From Phyllosticta citribraziliensis (Eukaryota): DNA of 64,000 nucleotides. The position numbers and the translations under genes are program-made. The stretch lies in NCBI RefSeq assembly GCF_038025025.1, contig NW_027117340.1, positions 1,488,001 to 1,552,000 of the forward strand, read 5' to 3'. Below, in pieces: positions 35,458 through 61,755 of this stretch. The first letter of the stretch is position 1; each line of letters opens with the position of its first letter. A model generated the notes under the pieces. That model did not search any database, was not told the origin of the DNA, and was given only the letters and a program-made list of their open reading frames with translations.

Positions 35458-36595
35458 TCAAGCAACAGCGACAGGATTTCCCGCCGTTGCGCCCACGGCC
35501 TTCTCAATGCCTTGTTTCTTCTGCGACTCCTTCCACTTCTCAGCCCTCCCGTAGCTCTCCCGATAGCTCCCGCCAACAGCTTCCTCGACCGTGATTGGCG
35601 GGTACTTGGCCTGTTCGTCTTCGGCCTTGCAGTTGGGCAGACAATCAATGACATAATCCGGGTTTCCCGAAAAGAAGACCGGAATGCTGTACCGCTCCTT
35701 GCCGGAGCGGTTGATGACGCGGTGCAAGTTGCTGATGTAGCGGTCGTTGCTCCAGCGCATCATCAGGTTGCCCAGGTTGACGACAAAGGCGCCCGGCACG
35801 GGCATGACGTCGAACCACTGTTGGACGTCTTTGTCCCAGACCTGGAGGCCGTCGACCTCGTCTTGCATCAGCACCGTCACGGCGCCAAAGTCCGTGTGCG
35901 CACCGATGCCGCGCCGCAGCTTCTCCTCGCCGTCGCCCTTCTCCGTCGGCGGGTAGTGCAGAAGGCGCATTGTGGCCACTGCCCCGTCGCTGAAGCGCCC
36001 GAAGTAACTCTCGTCAAGATCCAGCGTCAGCGCCAGCACTTTGAGAATGTCCTTGGCCAGCGACACCACGGCGTGGTAGTAGGACATGCACGTCGTCTTG
36101 AAATCCTCAACTTCTGCAAGCAGCTCCTCCGAAGGCCATGCGTTGGGGCCTGAGTTGAGCTTCTTGTTCACGTGGTAAGGGTGCGTCTTGGGGATCTCCT
36201 CGCCAATATAGAAGCCCTCTTTCAACTCGGGCAGCGTGCCCTCTTCGAGGATCTGAGAGCGGAGCAGCTCGTAGCCGCGGTTCCAGGTGTTGAGATCTAT
36301 CAACACATCAGCACCGCATGTTGCATTTTGCATGAAAACGTGATCTGGCAATACCTTTCCCCACGCTCTTCTTGACCTCCAATGGCAAATCGAAAAAGCG
36401 CTTGTTCCACTGCATGACCTTCTGCTGCAGCTCAACGGGCACGGGGTGGTTTATGATCTGGAAAAACCCATTATGCAAGCAGCAGTCGCGCACCTGGTCG
36501 ACTAGCTTCTTTTTGGCCGCCAGGTCCTCCGAGTAGAAGACTGAGAAGTCGAGCAGCGGCGGGCTGCGCGCGGTGTTGGGCTCAGAAGACGCCAT
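35458..36595 (-). CDS. hxnY: 2-oxoglutarate/Fe(II) dioxygenase (IPNS-like); HxnY orthologue by context
   Basis: ATG at 36595; intron 36354-36297. Motifs PLLDFS...NGFFQIINH, HTDFG (HxD), SNLHRV and ERYS (RxS). First gene of the hxn-like cluster. Confidence 0.8.
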
Positions 36596-37855: not shown

Positions 37856-39230
37856 CTATGCCGCAACAGTCTCCTCGTAGGTAGGATAGTCAACGTAGCC
37901 CTTCTCAGGAGGATCCGCGCCGTAGAAAGTCGACCTGTCATACTGATTCAACGGAAGCCCGTCGGCCAGTCTCTTTGGCAGATCCGGGTTCGCAATGAAC
38001 CAGCGCCCGAAGACAATCGCGTCGCCATAGCCCTCTTCGACCGGCACGGTGCAGTTTTCCCTGCTGAACCCGCCGGCCGTCAAGAATTTGACACCGCCGT
38101 TGGCCAGAATCTTGGAGAATGGCGCCAGCGAAGGCTTGTACGAAGCCTCCTTTCCGCGGGTGGCTTCCGCCTCGACGCCGTTGCCGTTTGCATTGTAGGC
38201 GGCCAGCGCGTCCATCTTAGCCTGGTGGTCGAGAACCTCGTCGAATCGCGGCTCGACCATGTGAACGTAGGTCAGTCGCTGCGGCAGCTGAATGATGCGT
38301 TGGCATAGATAAGCCCAGTGTGCGTTGGGATCACTGTCGCGTGTGTCCTGGAAGTAATTATAAGGGGACAGGCGGATGCCGACGCGTTCGGAGCCAACTG
38401 CTTCGCACAAGGCCGAGATTACTTCGAGGGGAAAGCGGCAGCGGTTCTCGATTGAGCCGCCGTACTCATCGGTGCGCAGGTTGACATTATCGTGGAGGAA
38501 TTGGTCCAGGAGATAGCCATTGGCGCCTGCGGTCGTGTCAGTTGAGTACGAACAGCCCTTGCAGATTGAAGCTGACCGTGGATTTCAACACCATCGAAGC
38601 CAGCCTCCTCGACTGCCAATTTGGCAGCAAGAGCGTATTTCTTGGTGATGTCGTGGATTTCCTCAACCGTCAACGGCCTCGGGGGCGTTGCCTCAAAGTC
38701 GCTGCCGTCTGCTGCCTTTCCCTTGATGGGAATATCAGAAGAGCTCACAGGCGGTTGGCCGGCGAGGAAAGTGGCGGGAGAGGCACGCCCGGTGTGCCAC
38801 AGCTGGCAGAAGATGTAGCCACCTTTGGCGTGCACAGCATCTGTAACTTGTTTCCATGCAGCCAATTGAGCTGGATCGTACACACCCGGTGCGCCGGGAT
38901 ATCCACAAGACTGGGGGTTGTCAGAGTTGATATTGAGGCGCAACCAATTCGACTCACGCGGTGGTAAATCTCAGTTGCCTCTGCGAGGAGAAGGCCGCCT
39001 TTTGACGCGCGCTGTGCGTAGTATTGCACGTGTAGGTCAGACGGGGCGTAGATTCCGTCGCTCACCTTGCGACCACGGAGACGCGTCAGAGGGGCCAGGA
39101 CAAGGCGGTGTTCAAGCTTAATCTTGCCAAGCTCGAGCGGCGTGAACAGGGCGGAATCTTTGAGAGGAGCAAATTTCGAAGCACCATTGGCGCTGCCGTT
39201 GGTTTTTGAAGAGCCGTTGGTGACTGTCAT
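37856..39230 (-). CDS. hxnT: Old Yellow Enzyme-family NADH:flavin oxidoreductase; HxnT orthologue
   Basis: ATG at 39230, two introns. Motifs [57 protein letters not shown] and STFY. Transcribed divergently from hxnS, as in A. nidulans. Confidence 0.85.
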
Positions 39231-39386
39231 GGTGGGCGATGGATGGGAACGACGCAAACAAGGTGGTGCAGGACGAAAAACAAGGGCGACGCGACGTTGA
39301 AAAATAAGGGCGGCGCCATTCCGACATTTGAAGACGGCCAATGGCAGGCTAACGTGAGCAGCTACACCAAACGCCCCTGGAACGGA

Positions 39387-39414
39387 GGATGGGATGGGAT
39401 GGGATGGGATGGAT
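39387..39414 (+). repeat. (GGGAT)4 pentanucleotide repeat; G-quadruplex-forming motif in the hxnT/hxnS bidirectional promoter
   Basis: ggat gggat gggat gggat gggat ggat gives four GGG tracts with 2-nt loops at 39391-39408. Confidence 0.75.
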
Positions 39415-39657
39415 AGAGTGGGCGAGGAGTGGGAGTCGGATAAGCGCGGTATCCGTAATGGCTCGGCCTTGAATGGCCGGCCGGTGCAACGCGGCTGTCG
39501 CACCGCACATTAGCTGCTGCGGCGTTCAGGGAGGAGTCGTACGCATTGCCACAAGGCCTGGCCTGGCGCCTTTTGTTGCTTCAAAAGAAGTTGGACACCT
39601 TATCGCGTTGCGAGGAAGCGCGTCGTGTTGTTGCAAACGAAGAGACCTGGACGGACC

Positions 39658-42600
39658 ATGTCTCCCTTACCAAAACCACCCCTTGCTGCGACGAGACCCG
39701 CTACCGACGTCTCCGCCGCTGAGGCTCTCACACCTCTCATCCAAACCACCTACACCTCTCCCACTCTCCGCTTCTTCCTCAACGGTAACAGAGTTGAGCT
39801 CGACAATCCCAACCCTCACTGGACTCTTCTCGACTTCATCCGCGACTTCCATGATCTCAAGGGCACAAAGCAAGGTTGCGCAGAGGGAGGCTGCGGTGCC
39901 TGCACCGTTGTCCTCAGCTCGCCAAAAATCTCCAAGAGAACGAAAAAGATAGAGTACCTCGCCGTCAACGCCTGTCTCTTCCCCCTGGTCGGTGTGGACG
40001 GCAAACACATCATCACCATCGAGGGCATCGGAAACGTCCTCAACCCACACCCTTTGCAAGAGCGCATCGCCAAACTCCACGGCTCGCAATGTGGCTTTTG
40101 CACTCCCGGAATCGTCATGTCTCTGTATGCCCTTGTGAGGAATGCGTACAATCCAGAGACCGGCGAGTTCCACCTAAGCGAGCATGAAATCGAGGACGAA
40201 GGCCACCTCGATGGAAACCTCTGCCGCTGTACCGGTTACAAACCCATCCTCCATGCGGCCAAGACGTTCGTCAGGGAGGACCTGAATGGCCGCTTGGCCC
40301 CGAGCACCATCTCTTACTCCAAGGATGATGCTTTCGATCTCACCGAGATTCCGCGGGGCGGCTGTGGATCGTCCTCTTCAGGGTCTTGCGGCAGACCCGG
40401 AGGATGTTGTAGAGACAAAAGTCCTTCGAGTAGTAGCAGTGGTGCTGAAAGCGAAACTGTGAAATCGTCGTCCTCGTCGTTGACTGAACCGGACTCGTCA
40501 TCTGCGACAGCCAGTCTTGGCGATGACCAAGAAGTGGACGCTGGTCTGACAGGCGCAGCCTACGCGAAACCAATGAAGTCCAAAGAGACAAAGGAGGAGG
40601 GAACAAAGCCAGAAAACACCAAAGCACAAACGACCCTAGACGCAGCCCCTGCTGCTACGAAACATGGGGTTCCACATTATATCTTCAAGCCTTACCAACC
40701 CAACACGGAGCTCATCTTTCCGCCGTCTCTTTGGAAGCATTCGAACGCACCCCTCTGTTTCGGCGATGATAGAAGGTTATGGTTCAGGCCAGTCACGCTG
40801 GAGCAACTTGTACAGCTGAAGAATGCGTATCCGTCCGCGAAGCTCGTGGGAGGTGCCAGTGAAGTGCAGGTCGAAGTCAGATTCAAAAACTCCAATTTCG
40901 CTGTGTCTGTCTACGTGTCAGACATTGAAGAACTCAAAGAGACCAAGTTACCCCAAACGGATGCCGAGTGGGATTCCCTAACTGAACTGTACTTGGGCGC
41001 GAACGCTCCTTTGTCTGAACTTGAACATGTGTGCAAAGTCGTACACAGCAAGCTCGGCCAAAGTGCCTTGGGTCTAAAAGCCTTGAGAAAGCAGCTTCGG
41101 TACTTTGCCGGCCGCCAAATTCGCAATGTTGCGTCTCTGGCTGGTAACGTTGCTACTGCCTCTCCTATTTCTGATGGCAACCCAGTTCTTCTAGCCGCCC
41201 GCGCGGACATCATCGTCCAAACACAAGAACAAGGCTCAGTCACTCTTCCCATTTCCAAATTCTTTGTCGGATACAGGACGACTACGCTGCCACCTGATGG
41301 AGTCATCACGCACATACGCATTCCCCTTCCTCCGGCAAACGCCAAAGAGATTACTAAAGCCTACAAGCAGGCCAAGAGAAAGGACGACGACATTGCAATC
41401 GTTACTGCTGGATTCCGCGTCCGCCTTGACGAAAGCGGCAATGTAGAAGACGTCTGCTTAGCCTATGGCGGAATGGCACCCACGACTGTGGAGGCCAAGA
41501 AGACGCAGGAGGCGTTGCTCGGGAAGAAGTGGTTTGAGTCAACGACCCTCGAAGCTGGACTAGATGCGTTGGTGACCGATTTCAATCTCAGTTACACTGT
41601 CCCAGGAGGCATGGCGCATTACAGACGAGCTTTGGCGCTTTCCTTCTTTTTCCGTTTCTGGCACGAAGTCGTCGCAGAACTTGGAATTGGCTCGGTCGAC
41701 AAGGACATCATCGAGGAGATCCACCGTGAGCTTTCCACCGGCGCCAGGGACGACTATAACCCGCTGGAGCAGCGAGTCGTTGGAAAACAGGTACCGCACC
41801 TGTCCGCTCTGAAACAGTGCACTGGAGAGGCAGAGTACCTGGATGATATCCCCCGTCAAGACAGAGAACTTTTCGGCTCGTTGGTACTCTCTGCGAAAGC
41901 CCACGCAAAGATTGCCGACATAGATTGGACGCCGGCCTTGTCCATGCCTGGTGTAGTCGGTTATATCGACAAAAAGAGCATATCGGCAGAGGCTAACATG
42001 TGGGGATCCAAATACAAAGATGAGCCATTCTTTGCTGACGGCGAAGTCCTGGCGCATGGCCAAGTTGTTGGCATGGTTTACGCAGATACGGCTTTGCATG
42101 CCTCTGCCGCGGCCAAAGCAGTCAAGATTGTCTACGATGATCTCCCAGTCATTTTGACCATCGACGAGGCAATCGAGGCCGGCAGTATGTACGAGCACGA
42201 CAACCAGCTCCGGAAAGGAGCTGCCGTCGCCGGCAAGATGGACGAGGCCTTTGCAAAGTGCGACCGCATCTTCACTGGCGTCACACGGGTTGGCGGCCAG
42301 GACCACTTTTACCTCGAAACCAATGCTGCTCTGGCGATTCCATCAAAAGAGGACGGATCGATGGAGGTCTGGTCGTCGACACAGAATACCATGGAAACTC
42401 AAGAATTTGTCAGCCAAGTACTTGGAGTCCCCAGCAACCGCATGAACGCACGCGTCAAGCGGATGGTAAGTACTCCCCCCTGCTCGGAGGCAGCACCAAG
42501 GAGCATTCGCGCGCGGCGCCCTCCCCCCCTCTTTTTCTTTCTTTTTCTTTCTTTTTAGAGGCACATTGGAGCTAATACGATCTATAGGGTGGGGCTTTCG

Positions 42601-44379
42601 GAGGCAAGGAGAGTCGAAGTGTGCCATTTGCTTGTTATTGTGCCATTGCCGCCAAAAAGGAGGGTCGGCCAATCCGTGTGATGCTCAACCGCGATGAAGA
42701 CATGGCAACTTCAGGGCAACGCCATCCAGTGCAGGCGCGCTGGAAAATCGGAACGACGCACGAAGGACGGCTACTCGTCATGGACGCAGACCTCTACGCC
42801 AACTCAGGCTTCTCGCAAGACCTGTCGGGCGGCGTCATGGACCGGTGCTGCACGCACCTGGACAACTGTTACAACGTGCCAGACGTGTGGATCCGCGGGC
42901 GCCTCTGCAAGACGAATATCCATAGCAACACGGCTTTCCGCGGCTTCGGCGGGCCGCAGGCAATGTTCATCGCCGAGCAGATGATGCATGCCGTGGCCGA
43001 GGGACTTGGCCTGGATGTCGATGAGCTGCGTTTGCGTAACCTGTACAACATTGGGGACCGCACGCCGTTCCACCAGCTCATTGACGACGACTGGCATGTG
43101 CCAACGATGCTGAAGCAGCTCAAGCAGTCGAGCGACTACGAGCAGCGCAAGGCCAACGTCGTGGCCTTCAACGCCTCCCACCGCTGGCGCAAGCGCGGCA
43201 TCTCTCTCGTGCCCTGCAAGTTTGGTCTTTCGTTTGCGACTGCGATCCATCTGAACCAGGCCGGCGCATCAGTCAAGGTGTACGCTGACGGTAGTGTGCT
43301 GCTACATCACGGGGGCACTGAGATGGGCCAGGGGCTCTACACCAAAATGTGCCAAATTGCCGCGCAAGAGCTTGGAGTCCCTCTCGACGCCGTCTACACG
43401 CAAGACTCGCAGAGCTACCAGACGGCCAATGCCAGCCCCACGGCTGCCAGCAGCGGCAGCGACCTCAACGGAATGGCCGTCAAGGACGCCTGCGACCAGC
43501 TCAAGCAGCGGCTCCAGCCGTATTGGGACAAGTTTGGACGCGACGCTGCATTCAAGACCATTGCACACGCGGCCTATCTCGATCGCGTCAACTTGGCGGC
43601 TAATGGCTTTTGGAAGATGCCTCGCATTGGATACATTTGGGGCACGTATGATGCGGAGAAGGCCAAGCCAATGTATTACTATTGGACGCAGGTACGTGTA
43701 GTTCACGAGGAGTCGAGAAGCTTGTATGCTGCTTGACTGCATTCGCTTCGGGCGAAGGAATGCTCCCTCGTCCCCTGCTTTTGCTCTTTCCCCTGACCCT
43801 GACCGCAACGCTAATACGCACTAGGGCGTGGCCTGCTCCGAAGTCGAGCTGGACCTCCTGACGGGCGCGCACACGGTACTGCGCAGCGACATTTTGATGG
43901 ATGTCGGCCAGTCGATTAATCCAGCCATTGACTACGGACAAATCGAGGGCGCCTTCATCCAGGGCATGGGCCTCTTCACGACCGAGCAGTCGCTCTGGAC
44001 AACGCGCGACGGCGCCCTCGCCACCGCGGGCCCAGGCACCTACAAGATCCCGGGCTTTGCAGACATTCCGCAAGTTTTCAACGCGGGCATGCTGCGCGTT
44101 GACGAGAACGGCGAAGCACTCACGTGGAACAACTTGCGCAGCGTACAGAGCAGCAAGGGTATTGGCGAACCGCCACTGTTCTTGGGCGCAACCGTCTTCT
44201 TTGCGCTGAGAGAGGCCGTGAGGGCTGCGCGGATAGAGAGAGGCGTCACTGAGCCGCTCGTGCTGCATGGACCGGCGACGGCAGAGCGATTGCGTTTGGC
44301 AGTCGGCGATGACATTGTCAAACGGTCCGCAGTGGAGAGGAAAGATGGCGAAAGGGCATTTTTTGTGGAGGTGGCGTAG
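39658..44379 (+). CDS. hxnS: Xanthine dehydrogenase paralogue: nicotinate hydroxylase / purine hydroxylase II (Mo-cofactor, FAD, 2x[2Fe-2S])
   Basis: ATG at 39658; introns 42466-42587 and 43692-43824. Motifs GCAEGGCGAC, QCGFCTPG, NLCRCTGY, GGAFGGKESR, TAFRGFGGPQ, GTEMGQG and KGIGEPP. Carries FATAIHLNQA, the HxnS-type motif, rather than the HxA-type FTALFLNQA. Confidence 0.9.
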
Positions 44380-46084
44380 TTTGACCAACGTGTAAGTTTT
44401 CATTCGTGGCGAGCGTGGGCATTGGCTGTGTTGTGGTTTGCCATTTTGACAAGGAAAGGCGTGGGTGCTCCTAGACTGATCGGCACCGGGTTACGCTGTG
44501 AAGAATGCAACTCTTGTTTTTCAGCCTGCTGCATGGCTGCATGGGACACCTCGCTTGTCGGCCGTGACGGATTCGGCAGACGACGGCGATAGGTCTCGAG
44601 ACGCGGTTGGTGATGGGGACAAACAGACTCGCGCCTCAAAGTCGATATCACAGCCGTCTCATCACACAACGGTCGCTTATCGAGAGGAGTCACAGCGATG
44701 TGGGCTCGCTGCGGTGCTGGGACAAAGAGTTGAGTTTATCGACGGGGGGCGTGGGCCGCTCCGTGGCCGTCGTGTCCCGCGGATCATCCATCTGATATGG
44801 GTCCGTCCGTGTTCGTTTTGCGAGGGACTTGGGCCATCCGGTCGATGATTGACGGGCGACGGGCTATCAGATTCTGGATCCAGCAAACAATGGTCCATCC
44901 AGGTCCTTGTGCAGTAGTGTGTACCTAGCTGTCGGAGATGAGCTTGTTCGCGGTCCGTGTCGGGTCGATTGCTGCGCCGTAGCGATGAATGGCGATTGTG
45001 TTGATTACGAATGGCCACAGGGCGTTGGATCGATGTTTAGGTTCAGTCCGCAACGCCATCTGCATGGCCGTGTTGGTGGTCATGACTGGCGGGTGGTGCA
45101 TGAGGTGTTTGCGACGGGAGAAGGCGACGCTGGGAGAGGTCGAGCAGTAGGACGTGTTGTTGCATGAATGCTCCGTCGTCGAGGTGAGATGGATGGCGGC
45201 AGAGGGTGGGCCCATGACGCTTTTTCCAGTACGTACAAGATACGGAGGTCGGGGATCGGGGTGATTGGTCGACAGGCGACGCCCAAAGCGGCAGCTCCGC
45301 CAGGCCACTGCGACCCCGCCCCAGCCGACAGCCTTCGGATATCAAACCCAACCCAACCCTCCACCTCGTCCTAACCTTCTCGGCGAATTTGGCCAAATGC
45401 CGTGCCACCAACGCGCTAAAGACGCCGTTATCCATCCTATCGCCGCCTGTCATCTCGCATCCACCTGCTGCCCGCCAGAGCAATCGGAGTCGTCCGTCGC
45501 CTGACCGCCCGCGCCCTCGACCCTCTCCAACTTGCTTTTCTGAATCCAGCAGCTTATTCCCGTCTCGCGCTTCCCTCGACCCGTTCCCGGCCAAGCACGA
45601 GGTGAGGTGGTGGACGTGGACTTCGTCACCCAGCAGCAGCTCTTCATGTATGCCTGTCGTCTCCACTCTTGATTGAGCCCGTGGCAGAGCGACAGGCCGC
45701 GCAGCCCACGCCCAAGACCAGCACGGCCGTCGGATCGTCGACGCCGAAGCCGAAACGCGCTCGTCGGCCGCGCGCCATGGCCAGATGCGAACACCACGGC
45801 CATCCCTGTGCCATGAATGGCGACATGCCGCTCTTCCAAGAGGGGTTGCGGAGAACAGGTGCAACCGTGCGTGCCTGACCTGGGGCCCTGCGGCTCCCTC
45901 TGGACAGGGTCTACCAGCACAATTTATGGCCGACGTCGCATCACCCCGATAAGACCAGTCAACCCCAAGTATCCACTGCTGTCCTGCTGCGCTGCTCTTG
46001 AACCTACATCGCCTCTCCTCTGTGAACTGTCTCTCCAAGCCATTGAATCGCTCGTCTGCCGACATCGCCCTCCCCCACCTCGTC

Positions 46085-49000
46085 ATGCGCAGAGCCTCGT
46101 CCGCCACCGGGTCCACGGACTCGCAGAGATCCCACTCCCGCAAAAAGAGCCTCTCTGGAGACTCCGCAGTCAAGAAGTTCGCCTGTGGTTACTCGGGCTG
46201 CGGCAGGAGCTTCACGCGATCGGAGCACCTCCAGAGACACTTGCTCAACCACACCGAAGGAGAAAGCACTTGTGAACGATGCCGTGCTCACTTCAAGCGC
46301 AAGGACCTGCTTGGTAAGCTCTTTTTGACTCGTGGCCAACAATGAATAGAATCAATTCGTGTAACGACATCCCATTCTCACACGTGGGAGCCCACGCTGC
46401 TTATATGTACACTTTTCAACCTTTTACTTTTTACATTTTGTCACCGGCTGTCAAGAATGGAGTGCATTGTTATTTCCGTCGTTAAGGCTGTCAACATGGA
46501 CCAATACACATCCCACTTTTTCAAGTTGCACCAAGCCTCTGGGACGCGTTCCACTAACATGGATCCAAGAACGGCACATGCAACGTCACCGCCAAAAGGA
46601 CGAAGAAGCTGGTGGCGAAGGTCATGGCGTCCTCAACACCAGGAAGCGCATGTGGAAGGACGTGGACGGCAAGATTGTTACAAAGCGTCCCAACCTCGGC
46701 AGCGGTTCTCAACAAGGCTCTCCCAGAGAGATCCAGCACGAGTCGCCTGCGCCAGCTGCGTCCATTGAAGACGACGCGCGAGACTTTGGCACTGAAATTC
46801 CGATCTCGCCTCCTATTTCCAGCAACAACTCGAACTCCTCCGAAACCTACGAGAGGAGAGCATCACACGCCACGACTGCTACAGAGCTGGCCAGCGATGA
46901 CTGGGTCTTTCCCCCGCTGGCTCTGAGTCCTGGTCACGAATCATCAGAGTTGTACCAAGACCCGGAGACGCTGCCCCAGGAGACGGAGCGGTTCTGGGGC
47001 TCAAACGAGGGGCTTTCGTCGTCTACTGCGATAAGCAAAACATTCGACGACGTACCCTACGACGATATTTTCAACCCTGACACTGGTATGTTTTGAACAA
47101 TTCCAGCAGCGGACATGCGCGCTAACTCCTCGACAGCAAGCTCCTTCAACATGCCCTTTACCACCATGAGCAACTACAACTGGCTGTTTGACTTGGATCT
47201 TGCCACGCAGCAGTCGTTGTCGACATCTCCAGACTTGTTTGCCCCAACGCACGTACACCAAGCTCCTGAAAGTCAAGCGTCCACTCATACCTTGGAAATA
47301 GGATTAAACAGGAGGCATACGCCAGCTGTCAGTGATCTTGCAACATCAACGAACGGAAGAGCCATGAATGCAACGAACCAGTCCCATTACGCCATGATAC
47401 CCGAGCTGAGCATGGAAACCGGCATTTCACTGCCTCCGCTAGCCCCGCAACGAACCATCGCAGATACCAGTCCACCACTTTCCAGCGTGACTAGGAGCTC
47501 AGTCGCCAACGGCAGCGAGTCCTTGAGAGCCAACGAAGCCAGAGGCTCACGCAAATCGCTCGCCCCGACCCAGGGCACCCCCGACATGGACTTTGAGCGG
47601 CCAATGTCGACCCTCAATCGATCTGCAATGTTACCAGTAATAGATGAAGCTACGAAAAATAAAATTGTCGATCTGATTGATGCTGCCAAACCCGTCACCC
47701 CGGATGGGTTCTACATTTCGAGGAGCCACCCTCTCCTCACGCTTCCCTCTCTACAGACGTATAGCAACATGTACTTTACCCGCTTCAACACTGCGTATCC
47801 GCTCATCCACCAGCCTACCTTTGATCCTGCCAGTGTCGAGCCTCTGTTGCTTGTGTCTGTCCTACTCATCGGGGCCACATATTGCGAGAAGGACGCGCAT
47901 CAAATGGCCGTAAGAGGGAAGCCCATATTGTGAGTTTTACGCTAATGCGGTCAGGTATGCATTCACGATGTACTACGGCCTCACATTTTTGCTCATCCCG
48001 GCTTCAACGCTAAGCCAGATCTTTGGGCCTTGCAGACCATTCTTTTGGTGGAATGCTTCGGCAAGAGCCGCGCGGGCCAAAAGCAGCACGACATGGCTCA
48101 TCTTTTCCACGGACTTTTGATCAACCTGATTCGACGGAGTGACTGCCAAACTGTCGGTTCGTCAATTCCTGATCCTTCTTCGAACAGTCTGGACTCGGTT
48201 TGGAAACACTGGGTGATTGCCGAACAAAAGAAGCGGTTAGTACCTAGTAGACATGAAAATAATTTGAGGCCTTTTGCTGACTGTAGGCAGGCTCGCTTAT
48301 TTGTGTTTCATGTGGGACGTCCAGCACGCAGTGCTTTTCTGCCAGTCCCTTTGCATGTCAGCGTTCGAATTGCGGTCGACATTACCGTGCCACCAACAGC
48401 TTTGGGAAGCAGATTCGCCAGACACGTGGTACAGACTTTGGAAGAAGCACTCTCGTTCTCCTCTGTTCTTGAGCACGCTGAAGACGTATTTGGTCACGCC
48501 CAAAGCAGTATCATCGCCAAAACATCTGAATGCGCTGTCAAGAGTGCTGATATTGCATGGACTGATGTCTATTAGCTGGGATATGAAGAGGAGGGATCAG
48601 ACTTCGCTTGGTGAGTCGGGTTGATCGAAATCCTCCTGGAAAATCTAACAGGCACACTAGGACTGGTCAGCAATATCCCACTTGGAGACTGGAAGGCTCG
48701 AATTTCAGCGTCCTACGAAGCTTGGCTGTCCGACTTTGAGGCTTACTGCGCGTCGTACATTTCGCGCTACTGTCCAGACCACCAAACCACGGCTCCGTCG
48801 TCCATCCAGCAAAGTCTCCTAAACGAGTTTCGTCTCTTCGCCACCGCTAACACCGCCATCTACCACGCCGCTCAGTTCCATCTCAACGCGGAGTTTCTCG
48901 ATATCCAAATTTACGCCGGCGCTCGACACATTCTTGGCCGTCCCGTGCAGCGCGCAGACTTTGTTCGGTCTCAGCGCGTCGTCAAGAAGTGGGCAGCGGG

Positions 49001-50078
49001 GGCCGCGGACTACGCCAATCCGTCGACCAGTAGGAATGCAGGAGCCATAAATTCTGGCAAGACGGCCAACATGAGCAGTAACGCTGCAAAAGCTGCCTGG
49101 CACTCTGCGGCCCTCATCCGAGATGGGGCGACGCGTCTGCGCGATTGGGACACTGGTGGCTTGTTCCACTACCCTTGGTGCTTGTATCTTGCCTGTCTAT
49201 GCATCTGGGCTTACTGGCATGCAAAGCCGCGGGACGAGATACAACCGACTTCGTCTTCCAATAGACGCGACTCGCTCCACGCATCTGCCAGCGGGGCGTG
49301 GGAAAAAGACACTACGACAAGACGTTTGCGCCAGCGCTCTCCCTCTCAATGCCAGCCAGTCGACCCGGACACCGAGTCCCTCGATGGGCACGGCCAAGAT
49401 TCAGACGAGGAGCCAGACGACGACGACATTGATGACGATGCGCCCATCTGGAACCCGGCGTCGGAAATGCACGCTTTGCTGAGAGCCATGATTGCTCGGC
49501 CGCCTCCTCCCTCGTGTCCATCCAGGCCAACTGCCAGCAACACCAACAACAGTACCAACACGACTGCACCGGCGACCTCTTCTTCGGCTTCGCAGACCCA
49601 GGAGCTCCCACTGTCGCTTCCGCGCATCAAAAACATCAAGCGCAAAACCGCCGGCTTGACGGCCGTCGTCGCTCACGCTCTGAGCCGCGTCCGCTGGGCC
49701 GTCGTCCACGACGGCATGATGGTGCTGCGCGGCTTGGTGCCTGGTCGCGTCGTCGGTGGGTTGGGCGGCAGCGGGTTGGGAATGGGGCTGGGAGCGTCGC
49801 CTGCAGCTGCTGCTGTCACCGCGACGGGCGGCGGTGCTGCGATGAGTGGAGGATTCAGTGGTGGTGGTGGTTCTGGTCATTCTGCCGCTGGTGGCGAAGC
49901 CGCTGTCTCTGCTGCGGCCATGGGCTTGGCTGGATTGGGCGCTGGCCACGCTGGCGGGAACGGTGGTGCTGTGTTTGGTGCCGATGCTGCGGATGCTGGA
50001 GGGGTTTTGGGACTCGGTGTCAGTGTCGGAATGGATATGGATATGGGTCTGGGCGGTATGGATATTGGCGGTGTTTGA
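46085..50078 (+). CDS. hxnR: C2H2 zinc-finger plus fungal-specific transcription-factor domain; HxnR-like pathway regulator
   Basis: Two C2H2 fingers, CGYSGC...HLLNH and CERC...ERHMQRH. Introns 46314-46569, 47086-47136, 47910-47954, 48236-48290 and 48611-48660. Motifs NPDTASSFNMPFTTMSNYNWLFD, YFTRFNTAYPLIHQPTF, FGKSRAGQKQHDMAHLFHGLLINLIRRSDC and VRWAVVHD. Confidence 0.85.
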
Positions 50079-50516
50079 TTTGTCGGTTGTTCCTTGTTGA
50101 TACGTGCTTCACTTATTTTGGGATTCGACGACGATGAGTACGGCAAATACGTGTTGAGGATCTATGAGAGCTTGATCATATGACTGATTGACATTCACCA
50201 CCTCGATTTTGTGTCTTGTGAGACCCTAGAAAAGCGACTTAAGTGGAAACATCATCGAATAGGCGGGGAAAACGATCGATGGATGGATATGTACGTGACA
50301 AGACTTTTCCTGTGTGTTCCAAAGGCTACGTGATACAGCGTGGTGAAATCCACGATTTTTTGCGCATACTTTCCCCTCTCTCCCTTCAAGGGGGTTGAGG
50401 TTGAAGTTTGAATGCTCCCTGTTACTTCCCTCAAGATGCACAGATGCCATGGAATACCCCAGTGCAGTGGGCGTCGAAAGAAGGGAGACCTCCTGGCAAC
50501 ATGAGCACATCTAGGG

Positions 50517-50618
50517 AGCATTCATTCGCTGCTGTAGCTACGGTGAAGAAGCATTCATTCACCACTATCACTGCGCTTAGGAAGCAGTCGTTCATTGCCG
50601 CAGCCCGGCCCAAGAAGT
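50517..50618 (+). repeat. Degenerate 33-bp tandem repeat (~3 copies)
   Basis: Units begin at 50517 (agcattcattc), 50550 (agcattcattc) and 50583 (agcagtcgttc), with a partial unit at 50616. The period is exactly 33. Confidence 0.6.
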
Positions 50619-50919
50619 CTCATTTATTTTGACACCCACTTGAAGCTCATGAAAACTTACTTCCTATCCAAGAGGGTCTCTGCATTGTATGTGCTTGCCA
50701 AGTCTAGTCGACGAGGCTTTTTTAGAAGAAGCTACCTATTGGCTCCCTTGCCATGCCCATGCCCATGCCCATCCATGCCTGTTTGTTTCCTTTTTGGTCC
50801 CGTAACCCCTTCAGCTACTTCTATCCAACCAGCAAAGTTTTGAGTCCGTCCGTCCGTCTTGTCGTGTTGTACCCCATCATCCATAGTTCATCCTGCAGAG
50901 TGCCAGAGTACTGCTCGCA

Positions 50920-52495
50920 CTACTCATCAACCTCGCCCTCTTCCAGCTGCTCGAAAGGCTCCTCCCCACGGCTCTGAACCCTGACGTAGTCAAAGCCCCA
51001 CTGCGTGCACCTCTCCTTGACGATGTTCCAATACTTCTCCTTGTCTTGGTCGTTCCTAAAGTCGGCCTCAGTGGTGGTGTACTCCAGCGCGACGAAGCGG
51101 ACGCGAATGCGGTGCGTGACATCCTTCAGCTTGCGGAGGAATGCACGCTCGGCGTCAGAGCGGGCCAGGTACTTGGGCATGGTGCGCCTGTAGATGGTGT
51201 TGGACCAGCCCATGGAATCGTGGTAGGCGGGGAGGCGCATGGGGAGAACAAGAGAGCGAGTCACGAACGGGGAGACTTGGATGTCGAGCTCGCGCAGGCG
51301 CTTGACCGCAAGGAGGTCAGTGAGGGCGGTGTTGAGCGACCTCAGAAGCGGGTCACGAGAGTTCTTCGCGACCTGGAGGCCATGGGCCTTGGCGGATTGG
51401 TAGACCCAGCCCGCACGCTGTTTGTCGGAGTTTTTGGAGAAGTGCCAGGACGGCATGTGGATGGTGACCTTGCGCAAGTTGGACATGTTGTGCTTGCCGA
51501 TTGTGTTCAGGAAGCACTGCAATCCAACGATGCCATACTGGTCGGGGAAGATGAAGTGAGTCTTGTGGTAGAGCACTTTGAGGCTCTCGCGAGAGACGGC
51601 GCGGGACGTGGTGAAGAGGCCGACACCGCGGTCATAGCGGGGTGGCTTTGTGAAGAAGTTTACAACTTGTCTGCCTCTCTTGTTTCTGGTGTAGACCCTA
51701 CTTCGCTCAGAGGGTGCAAGGTGGAACTGATTGCGAACGAGGAACTGATTGCCAAGGTTGGGGATGCCGCGAGCAAATTGATCTTCCGCGTACGGGAGGA
51801 GGCGATCGAACATGCGGGCTGGTTCCACGTCGACGAGAGCAAACTTCCATATTTCGTCTCGGAGCTCGCGTGGCAGGCGGAGGAGCACAGACTCTTCAAA
51901 GTTCTGTGGCCGTTAGCAATGCTATCCCACAATTGATCAGGAGGAGGCTTGGACTGACCCTGAGCTGAACAGCCCTGTTGACGCGGCTGAACCAGCTATT
52001 GAAGTTCATGGGGCGCTGCCAGAATGATGAAAGAAGCTTGGCTTCTCCAGTCGCAGAGTGCTCATCAATACTGTCGGAGAATACGGTCCGCAGTTTGCAG
52101 AGACGGTCGCGAAGGTCTTCTCCCTCATCCATGACGATGCTCCTGTAGGGCATGATGGTTGTACCTTCGCAGTAGTCGAACGACGAGTCGGGGTTCGGCT
52201 TGAGCAGGCGCGGCCAGTCCTTGTCGCTCATCTCTCTCTTGAAAACGAGCACCTCGAGCGAGTTGTCCTTGTCTCGACGTTTGTACTGGGCCGTGTGGAT
52301 CGCGTCAAATAGCTGAAGATCGATGTGCAGACCCTTTGCTCTCAACTTGAGCCCATCTTCGGCGAGCTGGACCTTGACTTTGTGGGTAGCGAACCTGGTG
52401 GACGGCACGAGCGTTAGAAGGCAGAAGTTGCGGTCGACGTATGTGGTGCTGGAGTTCTGCGCCCAAAGGATGCGATGTTTGCTCGTAGGAATCAT
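50920..52495 (-). CDS. Hypothetical ~506-aa protein: N-terminal p23/CS-like domain fused to an F-box-like motif and an uncharacterised C-terminal domain
   Basis: ATG at 52495: ILWAQNSS...RNFCLLTL...DLQLFDAI...LVFKREMSDKDWPRLLK. Intron 51958-51904 (GTCAGT...GCTAAC...CAG) joins in frame to NFEESVLLRLPRELRDEIWKFAL...LFTTSRAVSRESLKVLYHKTHFIF...FLNTIG. Confidence 0.65.
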
Positions 52496-52652
52496 GCTGA
52501 GGCAGGCCGTGTGCCTTAGCTGGCGCTTTTGCGAGATGGGAGTGGACCAGTTGACGACTCGAGATGAAGAGAAGAGGTCGAGGTAGAGGAAAGATGGGCG
52601 ACGGATTTCAAAATGAGGCCGCAACCGCCACGGCGATTCTGCGGTTGTCTCA

Positions 52653-52995
52653 TGGTATCCGCAGCCTCGGTGACGACACCATGATTTGGTGGTTTTCCAT
52701 GAGGCGGGAGCAGTCGGGTTGCCGCACCTTTGAGCATCCAGGGCCTCGGCGACGACATCATACTTTGGTATTTCCCATGGGCGGACGGAGACGCCATATC
52801 GCATCGCATCGCATCGCATCGTTGAGCGTCTGCAGCCTCGGCGACGACATTATATTTTGGCGTTTTCCCAAGAAGAGGCGGATTGGAGCACTGCACCGTG
52901 GAGCATCCGCAGCCTTAATATCAACATTACATTTCTGTGTTCTCCCATGAGGTAGAAGGAGTCTCCGCAACATTGAGCATCACACGTAATAACAT
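52653..52995. repeat. Degenerate tandem array of ~77-bp units (4 full copies and 1 partial)
   Basis: Approximate core GAGCATCCGCAGCCTCGGCGACGACAT...TTTGG...TTTCCCATGAGG at ~52653, 52732, 52824 and 52901, partial at 52975. The second unit is expanded by (GCATC)4. Confidence 0.75.
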
Positions 52996-55144: not shown

Positions 55145-57381
55145 ATGGCTCCGCATATCTGGGGGCTGATCAAGCGCAGCACTCCTCCAAGGTTCCTCAA
55201 AATGTCCCCCAGCAGAATTCCGAATGGCGAACTCAGAGAAGGCAGCGTCGACATCTTGCAAGCCGATATTCCCTACGTTCCTGGTTCATCCCATGGCCCT
55301 ACACACTCGAAAAGCGAAGTCCTCGTCGTAGGCGCCGGTCCGGCCGGCCTCATGCTTGCGTACGCCTCCCTGGTCCAAACTCACGTGAAATTTGTCCGAC
55401 TAATTCTACCTCCAGAGACAACCTTGCCCGCTTTGGAATCAAGGTGGAAATCATCGATGACCGGCCAGAGCGGACCCTCACGGGAAGAGCGGATGGCCTT
55501 CAGCCGAAGTCCATCGAAACGCTGCGCCAGATGAGGATTGCGGAGCCCCTTCTCCGCAAAGGTGTCAAAGTCTTTGACATATGCTTTTGGGTAGGCGCTA
55601 GCCGAGATTCCTTGGTTTCCGAACACTGACAACCGCCAGAGATCATCATTGACGGAAAAGATGCACAGAGCGGGGAGAGAGGTGCACTATCCGCAAGAAA
55701 CAGTAGATTTGCTAGATCCCTACATCCTGCTCGTGCACCAGGGCATGATTGAGCAGCTCTTCATCAACGATCTCCGGGAAAGGGGAGTAGACGTGCAAAG
55801 AAACACGGCCTTTATGGACTTTGAGTATCTTTCGGGCAAGACGTCACCCATTCAAGTCACGTGCAAGGCCGACGTGCAGCAGCAAAAGAGGACGATGAAT
55901 ACGCACTACATTGTGGGGTGCGACGGGGCGCACTCACAGGTCCGCAAGTCGATGCCCGGCGCGCAGCCGCTTGGAGCGTCCTCGGACGCCATCTGGGGAG
56001 TCTTGGACGGGCAGATAGAGACGGACTTTCCGGATCTCTGGTCCAAGGCCGTCATCTACTCGGAGGAGGCGGGGTCGGTCCTCATCATCCCGCGTGAGCG
56101 CAACCTGACGCGGCTGTATATTGAGCTCAAGTCCGAGTCGAGAGGGAGCGCGTCCAAGGACGAGCTCACGCGAGAGGTTGTCATGCAGAGGGCTCAGGAG
56201 ATTATGCATCCATTTTTCCTCCGATGGAAGTCGGTCGGTGAGTCGGTTTGGGGAAGAGGAGACGAAGAAATTTACTAACGGGAGGATTGCAGAATGGTAC
56301 GGCAGGTATCAAGTGGGCCAGCGCGTGGCGACCAAATTTGTCGACGACAGGGGCCGAGTGTTTATCGCTGGAGATGTAGGATTCGCCGTCGTTTATGCTT
56401 GCCAGGGGACAAAGCTCACCAATTGCACAGGCCAGCCATACGCACTCGCCAAAGGCCGCTCAGGGCATGAACACGTCGCTTCACGACGCCTGGAACCTGG
56501 CCTGGAAGCTCAACCTCGTCATCCGCAAAATCGCAAAGCCCGAGCTGCTGCACTCGTACGAAGAAGAACGCCGCAAGATTGCCCAGGACCTCATTTCGTT
56601 CGACTATGAGCACGCCAACGCCTTTGCCGCGGGCGACTCGACGGCGCTGGCGCAGAATTTCATGAAGAATGTGCGCTTCATCAGCGGCATAGGGGCCGAG
56701 TATGGCCAAAACGACCTCAACATTGCAACAGACGCCATGGGCTGCGGCGACCTGCGACCCGGCTGCCTGCCCTCGCCGGCCAAGGTGACGCGCTTCATTG
56801 ACGCAAATCCAGTTGACATCCAGCTCGACATTCCGACATTGGGCCAATTCCGCATCTACTTTTTTGCAAACGACGCGCTGCGCAGCCGACCCTTTCTCGA
56901 AAAGGCGTGTTCGGCCGCCAACAGCAGCGCCAGCTTCATGGGCCGCGTGTCGGCCGCCGCCAACGCCAGCTACACGCTGCAACCGCCCGTCGCGGCGCCG
57001 CACGACGAATTCGTGTGTCCGGAGCGCTACACGCCCATCTCGTGCCTATTCACGTTTGCGCTCGTCACGCGCATGGCCAAGAGCCGCCTCGAAATCGCCG
57101 ACCTGCCCCAAGTGCTGCGAGACTCGCCGTGGACCATTTATCTCGACAACGTCGCAAACATGGACACGCGCAGCCTGTCGTGCACCGACAAGTGGCTAGG
57201 CGCAAACACGCTCGACGCCGACCAGGTGGCCATTGCCGTCGTGCGTCCCGATGGCTACGTCGGCACCATCAAGGTTTGGGATGACGGCACCACGAGGGAG
57301 AAGGGTGCCGAGGCCATGCGCTTCTTGGATGACTACTTTGAGCGGTTCCTGACGTGCGATTTGCCCGGCCAGGCATACTAA
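55145..57381 (+). CDS. hxnV: FAD-dependent phenol 2-monooxygenase-like enzyme; HxnV orthologue
   Basis: ATG at 55145 (or 55202), four introns. Motifs [68 protein letters not shown] and a C-terminal thioredoxin-like domain with VVRPDGYVG. Confidence 0.85.
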
Positions 57382-60162: not shown

Positions 60163-61755
60163 ATGTCTTTACCGCAAGCCCGCGCACCTCCAGTCCTCGA
60201 GCAACAGCATCGCGCCCCGGATGAACGACTCGACGTATTTCGCTCTGCCCATCCCCTGCCCTTAGACTGATAACTGACTTTCCCCAGATCATCATCATCG
60301 GCGCGGGCCTCGGCGGCCTCTGCGCCGCCACCGCATTGCTCCTCTCCGGCCACAAAGTGACGATCCTCGAGTCGGCAGCGGCGCTCTCAGACGTCGGCGC
60401 CGGCATCCAGTGCCTGCCCAACTCGGTGCGCATCCTCAGGGCGCTGGGCCTGGAGCCGCACCTGGCACCGCACCTGACGACGCCGCGCTGCTGCAACATG
60501 CTGTCGTGGAAGGGCGAGGTGCTGGCCAGCCTGCCGTTCAAGGCGTACGCGGACCGCATCGGCGGCGGCAGCGAGTTTTGGGACTTCCACCGCGCCGAGC
60601 TGCACGCCGCCCTCGTCGCGCGCGTCCTAGAGCTGGGCGGCGCTGTAAGGACCGGCTGCCGCGTCAAGGACGTCGTGTGCTTTGACGGCGACCTGGGCGA
60701 AGGCGGACTGGGACCGGACCAGAGCGCTGCGGAAGCGGTGCTGGAGAGCGGCGAGCGGGCGCGCGCAGACATCGTCGTTGGCGCTGACGGCATCAACTCG
60801 CGGTGTCGAGAGATAATGCTAGGCCGGCCGGACCCCCCGGTCTTGACGGGCGATCTAGCCTACAGGCTGCTGCTGAAGACGGAGAAGATGCTCGAGGACG
60901 ACGAGCTGAGAGACTTGGTGCTTGATCCGCAAGTCAACTACTGGCTGGGTCCAGACATGCACGCAGGTGTGTTTTCTCCTTTCCGTCCCATCCAAACACC
61001 CACCCCTGACGAGCAAATCAGTGAACTACATCCTCCGCGGCGGCGAGTGGTTCAACATGGTTCTCTTGGTTCCGGACGACCTGCCTCCCAACGTGTCCAT
61101 CTCGCCCGGCTCGATACCAGAGATGCAAGCCCCGTTCCGCGACTGGGATCCGCGCATCCCAAAGCTGCTGGCCCTCTGCGAATCGGTGCACAAATGGCGG
61201 CTGTGCATCCGGCCAACGCTGGAGCCGTCGTGGTCGCACGCGTCGGCCGCCTTCACGCTGCTGGGAGACGCCGTGCACGCGACGCTGCCGTACCTGGCCA
61301 GCGGCGCGGGCATGAGCTTCGAAGACGCCTGCGTGCTGGGCCTCTGCCTGGGCCGCCTGTCCAGCAGCACCAAGTCCGGCAAGGCGCGCGCGCTCCGCGT
61401 CTACGAGGCCTGCCGCAAGCAGCGCACCGAGGCCGTCGTCGCGCGCGGCAACAAGCAGCAGTTCCTGTACCACGTGCACGACGGCCCGCAGCGCGACGAG
61501 CGAGACGCGCTGTTTCGCGCGTGGAACGGCGTCGAGGCGCGGCGGGCGCGCGGCGAGCGCGTCGACCCCGCGGCCGAGGGCTTGGAGCAGGGCAGCGACC
61601 CGTTCCCCTGGCGCCAGGGCGGCGTGGGCGATTGGCTGTTGACGTACGATTGTTGGGATGACGTGGAGAGCGAGTGGGCGAGGGATGTCGAGGGGGAGAA
61701 GAGGAAGATGACGGAGATGGAGCAGGAACAGGAAGGTGATAGGGCGAAGCTGTAG
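60163..61755 (+). CDS. hxnX: FAD-dependent salicylate-hydroxylase-like monooxygenase; HxnX (6-hydroxynicotinate monooxygenase) orthologue with PTS1
   Basis: ATG at 60163; introns 60235-60287 and 60967-61021. Motifs IIIIGAGLGGL, VGAGIQ, DIVVGADGINS, TGDLAYR and LLGDAVHATLPYLASGAGMSFED. C-terminus is -AKL. Confidence 0.85.

Follow-up and report, generated by a model that had tools for sequence, protein, structure and literature searches.

A spliced gene joining a p23/Sba1-derived CS domain to a DUF7730/2EXR domain in the hxn cluster of Phyllosticta citribraziliensis, and the same fusion in two families of the Botryosphaeriales

Results

The window, a 64,000-nucleotide stretch of a Phyllosticta citribraziliensis contig, contains between positions 35458 and 61755 seven recognizable hxn genes (hxnY, hxnT, hxnS, hxnR, hxnV, hxnM, and hxnX) of a cluster for vitamin B3 (nicotinate) breakdown. 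Their Pfam domains are as listed for hxn genes in the sections of PMC8478523 used here, and orthology was judged from domains and clustering only. Genes resembling hxnN, hxnW, hxnP, or hxnZ were not seen in the 32 scanned ORFs or in ORF lists extending 8 kb past the window. As shown in Table 1, the gene described in this study is flanked by the hxnR-like and the hxnV-like gene, which agrees with an earlier reading of the sequence alone (here called the sequence-only reading) that had placed it as an insertion in the middle of the cluster. The last exon of the hxnR-like gene (49071-50078) ends in a long Gly/Ala-rich low-complexity tail.

Table 1. Features of the hxn cluster and of the fusion gene (positions within the window)
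Feature	Position	Strand	Description
HxnY-like	35458-36450		Pfam domain set
HxnT-like	37856-39509		Pfam domain set
HxnS-like	39514-44379		Pfam domain set; divergent from hxnT, as in the conserved couple (PMC8478523, section used here)
hxnR-like	45817..50078	+	C2H2 fingers and Fungal_trans; convergent with fusion gene
MITE-like element	50465..50641	.	177 bp, outside the gene, 280 bp downstream of the stop codon; terminal inverted repeats of ~27 bp beginning with CAG
Fusion gene, coding part	50920..52495	-	506 aa
Exon 2	50920..51903	-	328 codons; aa 180-506, DUF7730/2EXR-family domain
Four strand-plus-helix units	50977..51558	-	aa 295-488, putative substrate-binding body; AlphaFold secondary structure
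Possible second half of an interrupted F-box	51562..51618	-	aa 275-293 (LFTTSRAVSRESLKVLY); weak alignment, helices 275-278 and 280-293
F-box-like first helix	51832..51894	-	aa 183-203 (LLRLPRELRDEIWKFAL); hhalign and AlphaFold helices
Intron	51904..51958	-	55 nt, phase 0, GT-AG; donor GTCAGT, acceptor CAG, branch site CTAAC 13 nt from the intron end
Exon 1	52495-51959	-	537 nt, 179 codons; aa 1-179, CS domain, eroded p23 tail, short linker, conserved pre-helix segment; codon GC profile
Conserved segment RPxxFxxW...VxRxxxL	51959..52024	-	aa 158-179; alignment with Botryosphaeriales orthologues; continues across the intron into exon 2
Eroded p23 tail	52169..52198	-	aa 100-109; alignments and motif count
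p23/Sba1-derived CS beta-sandwich	52199..52480	-	aa 6-99, ILWAQ to WPRLLK
Four to five degenerate direct repeats	52644..52981	.	spacing 74-92 bp; located 5′ of the start codon, in a region that occurs once in the genome
hxnV-like	55145..57381	+	FAD_binding_3 and Phe_hydrox_dim; divergent from fusion gene across 2.65 kb
HxnM-like	58766		Pfam domain set
HxnX-like	60225-61755		Pfam domain set

The two ORFs of this gene had been proposed to be joined by the intron into about 506 codons, and the proposal held in every coordinate. The joined exons encode a product with a single terminal stop that is letter for letter identical to the database protein P0001 of P. citribraziliensis, which forms a cluster with one member and is labeled as an uncharacterized or "CS domain-containing" protein. 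Because 57 in-frame GT/GC-AG cuts are possible within the gene region and the match to a database model is no independent proof of splicing, other support was sought. Similarity to P. capitalensis continues through the joint (RAVQLR-NF in P. citribraziliensis against RAIELR-NF), and the intron position is common to the Lasiodiplodia and Neofusicoccum orthologues, with the intron-unaware ORFs P0034, P0036, and P0046 from these clusters running into Val-Ser at the same codon. The Logan ORF P0045 contains both parts in one frame and is three residues short at the joint.

Two public runs, X1 and X2, contain the stretch; neither is recorded as RNA, and X1 was taken for RNA by guess. Letters 49 to 158 of X1 contig 6 (158 nt) match 51959-52068 with 0 differences, beginning exactly at the edge of exon 1. 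The bin depths of this contig (4.47, 5.40, and 4.84) equal 48, 58, and 52 letters at a depth of 9.4 over 101, and its coverage includes 51898 and leaves out 51853. Its first 48 letters are therefore assigned to the start of exon 2, since an unspliced contig would have given 9.4 over the intron bin. By this depth arithmetic, and with X1 as RNA by guess, contig 6 appears to be spliced at the 51958/51904 joint, the place at which a splicing check had been advised. X2 record 12 spans 51805-52716 without a gap, as expected of DNA, and X2 record 10, which is ~83% alike, contains both parts at the same spacing.

The frame of exon 1 is open for 108 further codons upstream of 52495. The codon GC of this extension (0.55/0.56/0.62) is non-coding-like compared to that of the CS part (0.55/0.36/0.76). 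Translation therefore probably begins at the ATG at 52495, and codon GC also led us to reject an alternative start farther upstream, at 52819. Exon 2 has its own ATG at 51813. Nine of 16 coding differences in relatives, a biased subset (40 of 392 rows), were synonymous, against 22% synonymous sites, corresponding to a crude ratio of about 0.23.

The likeness of the N-terminal part to p23/Sba1, noticed before from motifs, was borne out. Yeast Sba1 was the sole match of exon 1 in a sequence search of the PDB at E ≤ 10 (E = 0.0062). A CS profile built without P0001 assigned 46.5 bits to this protein, the best of 500 shuffles reaching 5.0. The fold check that had been recommended for this region recovered the CS beta-sandwich of the p23/Sba1 co-chaperones. 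The p23-specific WAQ...WPxL signature is also present, L10, W11, A12, Q13, W94, P95, L97, and L98 being invariant in eight aligned rows. A motif count confirmed the reported lack of the p23 segment K-x-D-F/W-D-K-W: DFxxW, the Hsp90-binding tail, is absent from P0001, in which an F-D pair lies five residues nearer the core than in p23 and Cys stands in place of the Trp. For yeast Sba1, F121 is described as required for binding to Hsp90 and W124 for inhibition of the ATPase in the sections of PMC7864943 and PMC11053944 used here. Lacking DFxxW, the P. citribraziliensis protein is no full member of the p23 family, and by its sequence it is probably the member of the fusion family least likely to bind Hsp90.

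The absence of the p23 motif and the acidic tail is correct for P. citribraziliensis but does not extend to the fusion group. All 12 Botryosphaeriaceae records (9 full-length, 3 exon 1) contain DFxxW at the same offset as the p23 protein P0021, and all 12 have a linker of 226 to 293 aa with 24 to 27% Asp/Glu, compared to 62 aa in P0001. The Neofusicoccum exon 1 matched Sba1 with E = 6e-14 through the DFxxW motif. As 12 of 12 records keep both elements, we interpret their absence in P. citribraziliensis as a later loss. A separate normal p23 gene is present in the same genome on contig C7, and the CS core of P0001 is 28% identical to its product. In a CS tree of eight rows, the P. citribraziliensis branch had a length of 2.4 against a median of 0.15; one origin of the fused CS domains obtained a p-AU of 0.48 and a grouping with the own p23 a p-AU of 0.21. 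Since the tree does not place this long branch, the CS part by itself is also compatible with two independent fusions.

Exon 2 matched the Pfam families DUF7730 (PF24864; E = 1.7e-4, 19.9 bits against a cut-off of 27) and 2EXR (PF20150; E = 2.4e-3, 18 bits against 24.8), in both cases below the curated cut-off; the orthologues P0004, P0005, and P0032 exceeded that of DUF7730 with 29.6, 31.6, and 27.8 bits. The nearest Atlas clusters were DUF7730/2EXR clusters (score 0.96), one neighbor cluster being 93% 2EXR and 76% F-box-like_2. At E ≤ 1, DUF7730 matched 24 and 2EXR 22 of 35 aligned relatives, and F-box-like_2 touched 4 of the 35; the canonical F-box families PF00646 and PF12937 were not among the 18 families matched by these relatives. 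No NCBIfam family was matched. From these profile comparisons, the exon 2 region belongs with DUF7730/2EXR and has no canonical contiguous F-box. The P. citribraziliensis genome contains 15 DUF7730 matches, and some DUF7730 genes occur as close neighboring pairs (G000:C11:248581-251224 and G000:C4:276978-279481).

The second part had been read as starting with an F-box-like sequence, which proved right for its first helix. The motif LLRLPRELRDEIW is present and equals the first F-box helix only. When the DUF7730/2EXR family was aligned by hhalign with 25 F-boxes of the own genome, helix 1 matched over 19 columns (probability 81, E = 1.2e-5), and the Leu-Pro plus helix 1 typical of canonical F-box proteins was found. 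A contiguous three-helix F-box (~45 aa, over the Pfam cut-off) was not found in P0001. The gene is absent from the 37 F-box-like (PF12937) matches of its own genome, and on a profile of 25 of these P0001 scored -0.7 bits, under the best shuffles (7.2). Residues 277 to 293 aligned weakly, and in the right order, with F-box columns 31 to 48 (hhalign score 12.0, a value reached by 2 of 60 column shuffles), three other regions scoring 6 to 10.5 against the F-box profile. The AlphaFold model (pTM 0.61) has helices at 185-188 and 191-202 (pLDDT 80 to 93), a low-confidence insert of ~70 aa that separates the two F-box-like helical parts, and units at aa 295-488 mostly with pLDDT 74 to 93 with dips. 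The match of helix 1, the ordered second half, and confident helices (185-202 and 275-293) flanking a poorly modeled insert make an interrupted F-box with a repeat-like body behind it a plausible structure for the C-terminal part. No F-box chain was among the listed PDB fold matches of the whole model, which were occupied by the CS domain. A viral library gave F-box or LRR rows at low probability only (0.07 to 0.54), and the DUF7730/2EXR family profile found nothing among PDB sequences (best E = 1.4).

Among 1.84 billion representatives, 25 non-self matches were obtained, one with both parts (P0005 from Lasiodiplodia), 2 with the CS part only, and 22 with the C-terminal part only. Neofusicoccum and Diplodia were found when the C-terminal region from Lasiodiplodia served as query (3 matches among 2565 candidates), and cluster look-ups added L. 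hormozganensis and N. ribis. Both parts are present in P0005, P0032, and P0033 (Lasiodiplodia), in P0040 and P0042 to P0045 (Neofusicoccum cluster), and in P0041 (Diplodia). The idea of a one-off chimera had to be abandoned: the suggested search of other genomes found the same architecture in three genera of Botryosphaeriaceae, with which the P. citribraziliensis protein shares an orthologue group. Phyllosticta belongs to the Phyllostictaceae and Lasiodiplodia, Neofusicoccum, and Diplodia to the Botryosphaeriaceae, both families of the Botryosphaeriales. The carriers represent a group of tree-dwelling fungi, and a spliced gene joining a p23/Sba1-derived CS domain to a DUF7730/2EXR domain is shared by four genera in two families. 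Word-seeded searches (exon 2; alignment A1) recovered only P0001 despite existing relatives and therefore do not bound the range of the fusion outside the Botryosphaeriales.

In a quick phylogeny built from 22 rows of the C-terminal domain, the nine Botryosphaeriales rows fell on one side (SH-aLRT 83), with a Phyllosticta group (97) and a Botryosphaeriaceae group (98), and with Saccharata apart. As domain order, joint, and intron are all shared, the data are most simply read as one fusion event that predates the separation of the two families. A CS domain was found in none of 15 other DUF7730/2EXR family proteins tested; a CS remnant in the Saccharata protein P0006 was ruled out, as no domain matched. 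Seven annotated Phyllosticta records, four from P. capitalensis and three from P. citricarpa/paracitricarpa, all of them database models, are without a CS domain, be it through loss or through truncated models, so this domain may be dispensable. The identity of the P. citribraziliensis protein to other Phyllosticta homologues is 39 to 45%, compared to 53 to 57% between Botryosphaeriaceae genera. The P. citricarpa and P. paracitricarpa proteins P0003, P0030, and P0031 have 270 to 273 aa, lack most of F-box helix 1, and show gaps in conserved motifs; UniRef names them HNH nuclease proteins, a label that Pfam did not support.

Discussion

The explanation we propose is an old fusion of p23 with an F-box-like protein in the Botryosphaeriales that would serve as an Hsp90/SCF adaptor, is eroding in Phyllosticta, and is a passenger in the hxn cluster. 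Taken as a whole, it is held tentatively, being slightly more apt to fail in some part than to hold in all. In all probability the fusion arose before Phyllostictaceae and Botryosphaeriaceae diverged, when a copy of the p23 gene came to lie ahead of a DUF7730 gene and the ordinary p23 gene was retained. With its p23 core and DFxxW tail, the ancestral protein would be expected to dock on the closed, ATP-bound Hsp90 dimer. The C-terminal part, an interrupted F-box with strand-helix repeats, might bind Skp1 as an SCF substrate receptor, and this receptor might either present clients held by Hsp90 or itself be kept folded by Hsp90. In P. citribraziliensis the grip on Hsp90 seems to have eroded, as judged from the lost Trp, the shortened tail, the short linker, and the long branch, so the protein of this species most likely acts simply as an F-box-like adaptor, its CS domain being vestigial.

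Compared to p23/Sba1 (yeast Sba1, PDB 2cg9; human PTGES3), the fusion proteins have the same WAQ start, CS beta-sandwich, and WPxL end, and those of the Botryosphaeriaceae also the DFxxW tail and an acidic stretch; they differ by continuing into a 330-aa DUF7730/2EXR domain, and the P. citribraziliensis protein differs further in the loss of DFxxW and in its diverged core. With DUF7730 and 2EXR proteins they have in common the LPxExR helix, the insert, the motif LLxVSRxVxxEAxxxLY, and the strand-helix body, whereas the CS domain sets them apart, as do, for P0001, scores under both curated cut-offs. The fusion resembles Sgt1 (TPR-CS-SGS) in a predicted combination of a CS domain for Hsp90 and a Skp1-reaching module on one chain. 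According to the sections of PMC2556094 used here, Sgt1 binds Skp1 via its TPR domain, next to the site of the F-box and competing with Cul1, and Hsp90 through the sheet face of its CS domain. In contrast, the fusion has a CS domain of the p23 type, a type that contacts closed Hsp90 through a C-terminal strand, and its proposed contact to Skp1 is F-box-like; the ancestral fusion would, like Sgt1, connect Hsp90 with SCF, but through different surfaces. CS domains joined to unrelated functional domains are also known from USP19, Ncb5or, CacyBP/SIP, and CS-PTPLA proteins, as seen in the fold matches, and USP19 is described in the part of PMC4726498 used here as tying Hsp90 to ubiquitin handling. 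These proteins have other partner domains and are widespread, whereas the present fusion was found only in the Botryosphaeriales. CS fusions as such are common; this one is narrow in distribution, and its function is predicted.

Judged by the listings of open-licence literature, the architecture of a p23-type CS domain with DUF7730/2EXR has no description, in agreement with the sequence-only reading, which did not recognize it as described; nothing was found for DUF7730 and no 2EXR title on fungal proteins. The fusion proteins are already in databases, mislabeled "hsp20-like chaperone" or "prostaglandin E synthase 3," which hides their architecture. A p23 module with an intact motif and an F-box-like domain on one chain would directly link late Hsp90 client handling to SCF turnover, a design different from that of Sgt1. 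The orthologue series is a natural experiment, the motif being intact in Botryosphaeriaceae and eroded in P. citribraziliensis, and the CS domain missing from other Phyllosticta models. The strongest form of this idea is a single-chain triage adaptor of the Botryosphaeriales in which p23 sits on closed Hsp90 and an interrupted F-box recruits Skp1-Cul1, with DUF7730/2EXR by extension a hidden F-box class with split helices; we rate this form as unlikely. If it were true, late-stage Hsp90 clients would pass straight to an SCF ligase, and the members of the large, unstudied ascomycete family DUF7730/2EXR would be F-box proteins with a variable insert interrupting the three helices. Should Skp1 binding hold for this part, the many ascomycete DUF7730/2EXR genes, with 15 matches in this genome alone, might be uncounted F-box proteins.

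A specialized Hsp90 co-chaperone or scaffold outside SCF, in which the DUF7730/2EXR body has some binding partner besides Skp1 and the LPxExR helix forms a structural part of that fold, would accommodate the missing contiguous F-box, the p23 signature and acidic linker of all 12 Botryosphaeriaceae records, and the many unrelated enzymes fused to CS domains (Ncb5or and USP19 among the fold matches, a CS-PTPLA cluster). The significant match of helix 1 to F-boxes, the second half in the right order, and the co-occurrence of 2EXR and F-box-like_2 in one Atlas cluster speak against it, and we consider it an unlikely reading, although one with appreciable weight.

Doubtful, too, and rather more so, is the view that the gene is decaying in Phyllosticta and that the P. 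citribraziliensis copy is transcribed with little or no function. The long CS branch, the loss of DFxxW, the short and gapped P. citricarpa/paracitricarpa models, and the low identity to other Phyllosticta homologues argue for it. Against it stand an intact frame of 506 codons with coding-type codon GC, the retention of both parts at equal spacing in the ~83% identical relative (X2 record 10), the synonymous excess in the biased subset of 16 sites, and the likely spliced contig.

Recruitment of the gene to the hxn regulon, where it would control turnover or folding of HxnR or the Hxn enzymes, is improbable. The gene does lie between the hxnR-like and hxnV-like genes, and a position divergent from hxnV is the usual place of hxnN in the sections of PMC8478523 used here. 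The HxnR and AreA consensus sequences GHGGGG and HGATAR each occur twice within 1 kb upstream, but neither occurs in the first 500 bp, and these predicted sites equal the window background of 1.4 and 1.3 per kb, respectively; the true hxn promoters of this cluster are no richer in them, which makes the counts a weak test. The same sections report that sporadic unrelated inserts are common in hxn clusters and that the one tested, nfsA, is not nicotinate-regulated, and their account of the A. nidulans regulon of 11 hxn genes lists no CS or F-box-like domain. The fusion gene resembles these additional genes (nfsA, pfdB, sphingoid kinase, phosphorylase fusion) as a sporadic non-hxn insert and differs in that they are enzymes, none of them listed there with a CS or F-box-like domain. 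In our preferred reading of the gene as a passenger, its location looks incidental, and nothing ties it to nicotinate use. That two separate genes, or a gene-calling artefact across a chance intron-like stretch, underlie the locus is close to refuted, because despite the many possible cuts and the own ATG of exon 2, sequence conservation extends across the joint, both families have the intron at one position, P0045 reads through both parts, and one contig appears spliced.

The MITE-like element past the stop codon has at least 48 matches in the genome (among 40 scored of 94 candidates). One copy, L006, has a perfect 8-bp target duplication, from which we presume the element to be of the hAT type. 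Mobilization of the fusion gene as transposon cargo found no support, as a MITE flanks the gene on just one side and the sequence 5′ of it occurs once in the genome. The direct repeats upstream of the start codon include an (ATCGC)x4.8 microsatellite. Two nested pairs of imperfect inverted repeats (53130-53153/53471-53494 and 52950-52970/53699-53719) lie between the fusion gene and hxnV, and an X1 contig of 6123 nt matches this single-copy region from 53088 onward without a difference at a depth of 1331, the gene contigs having depths of 8 to 21.
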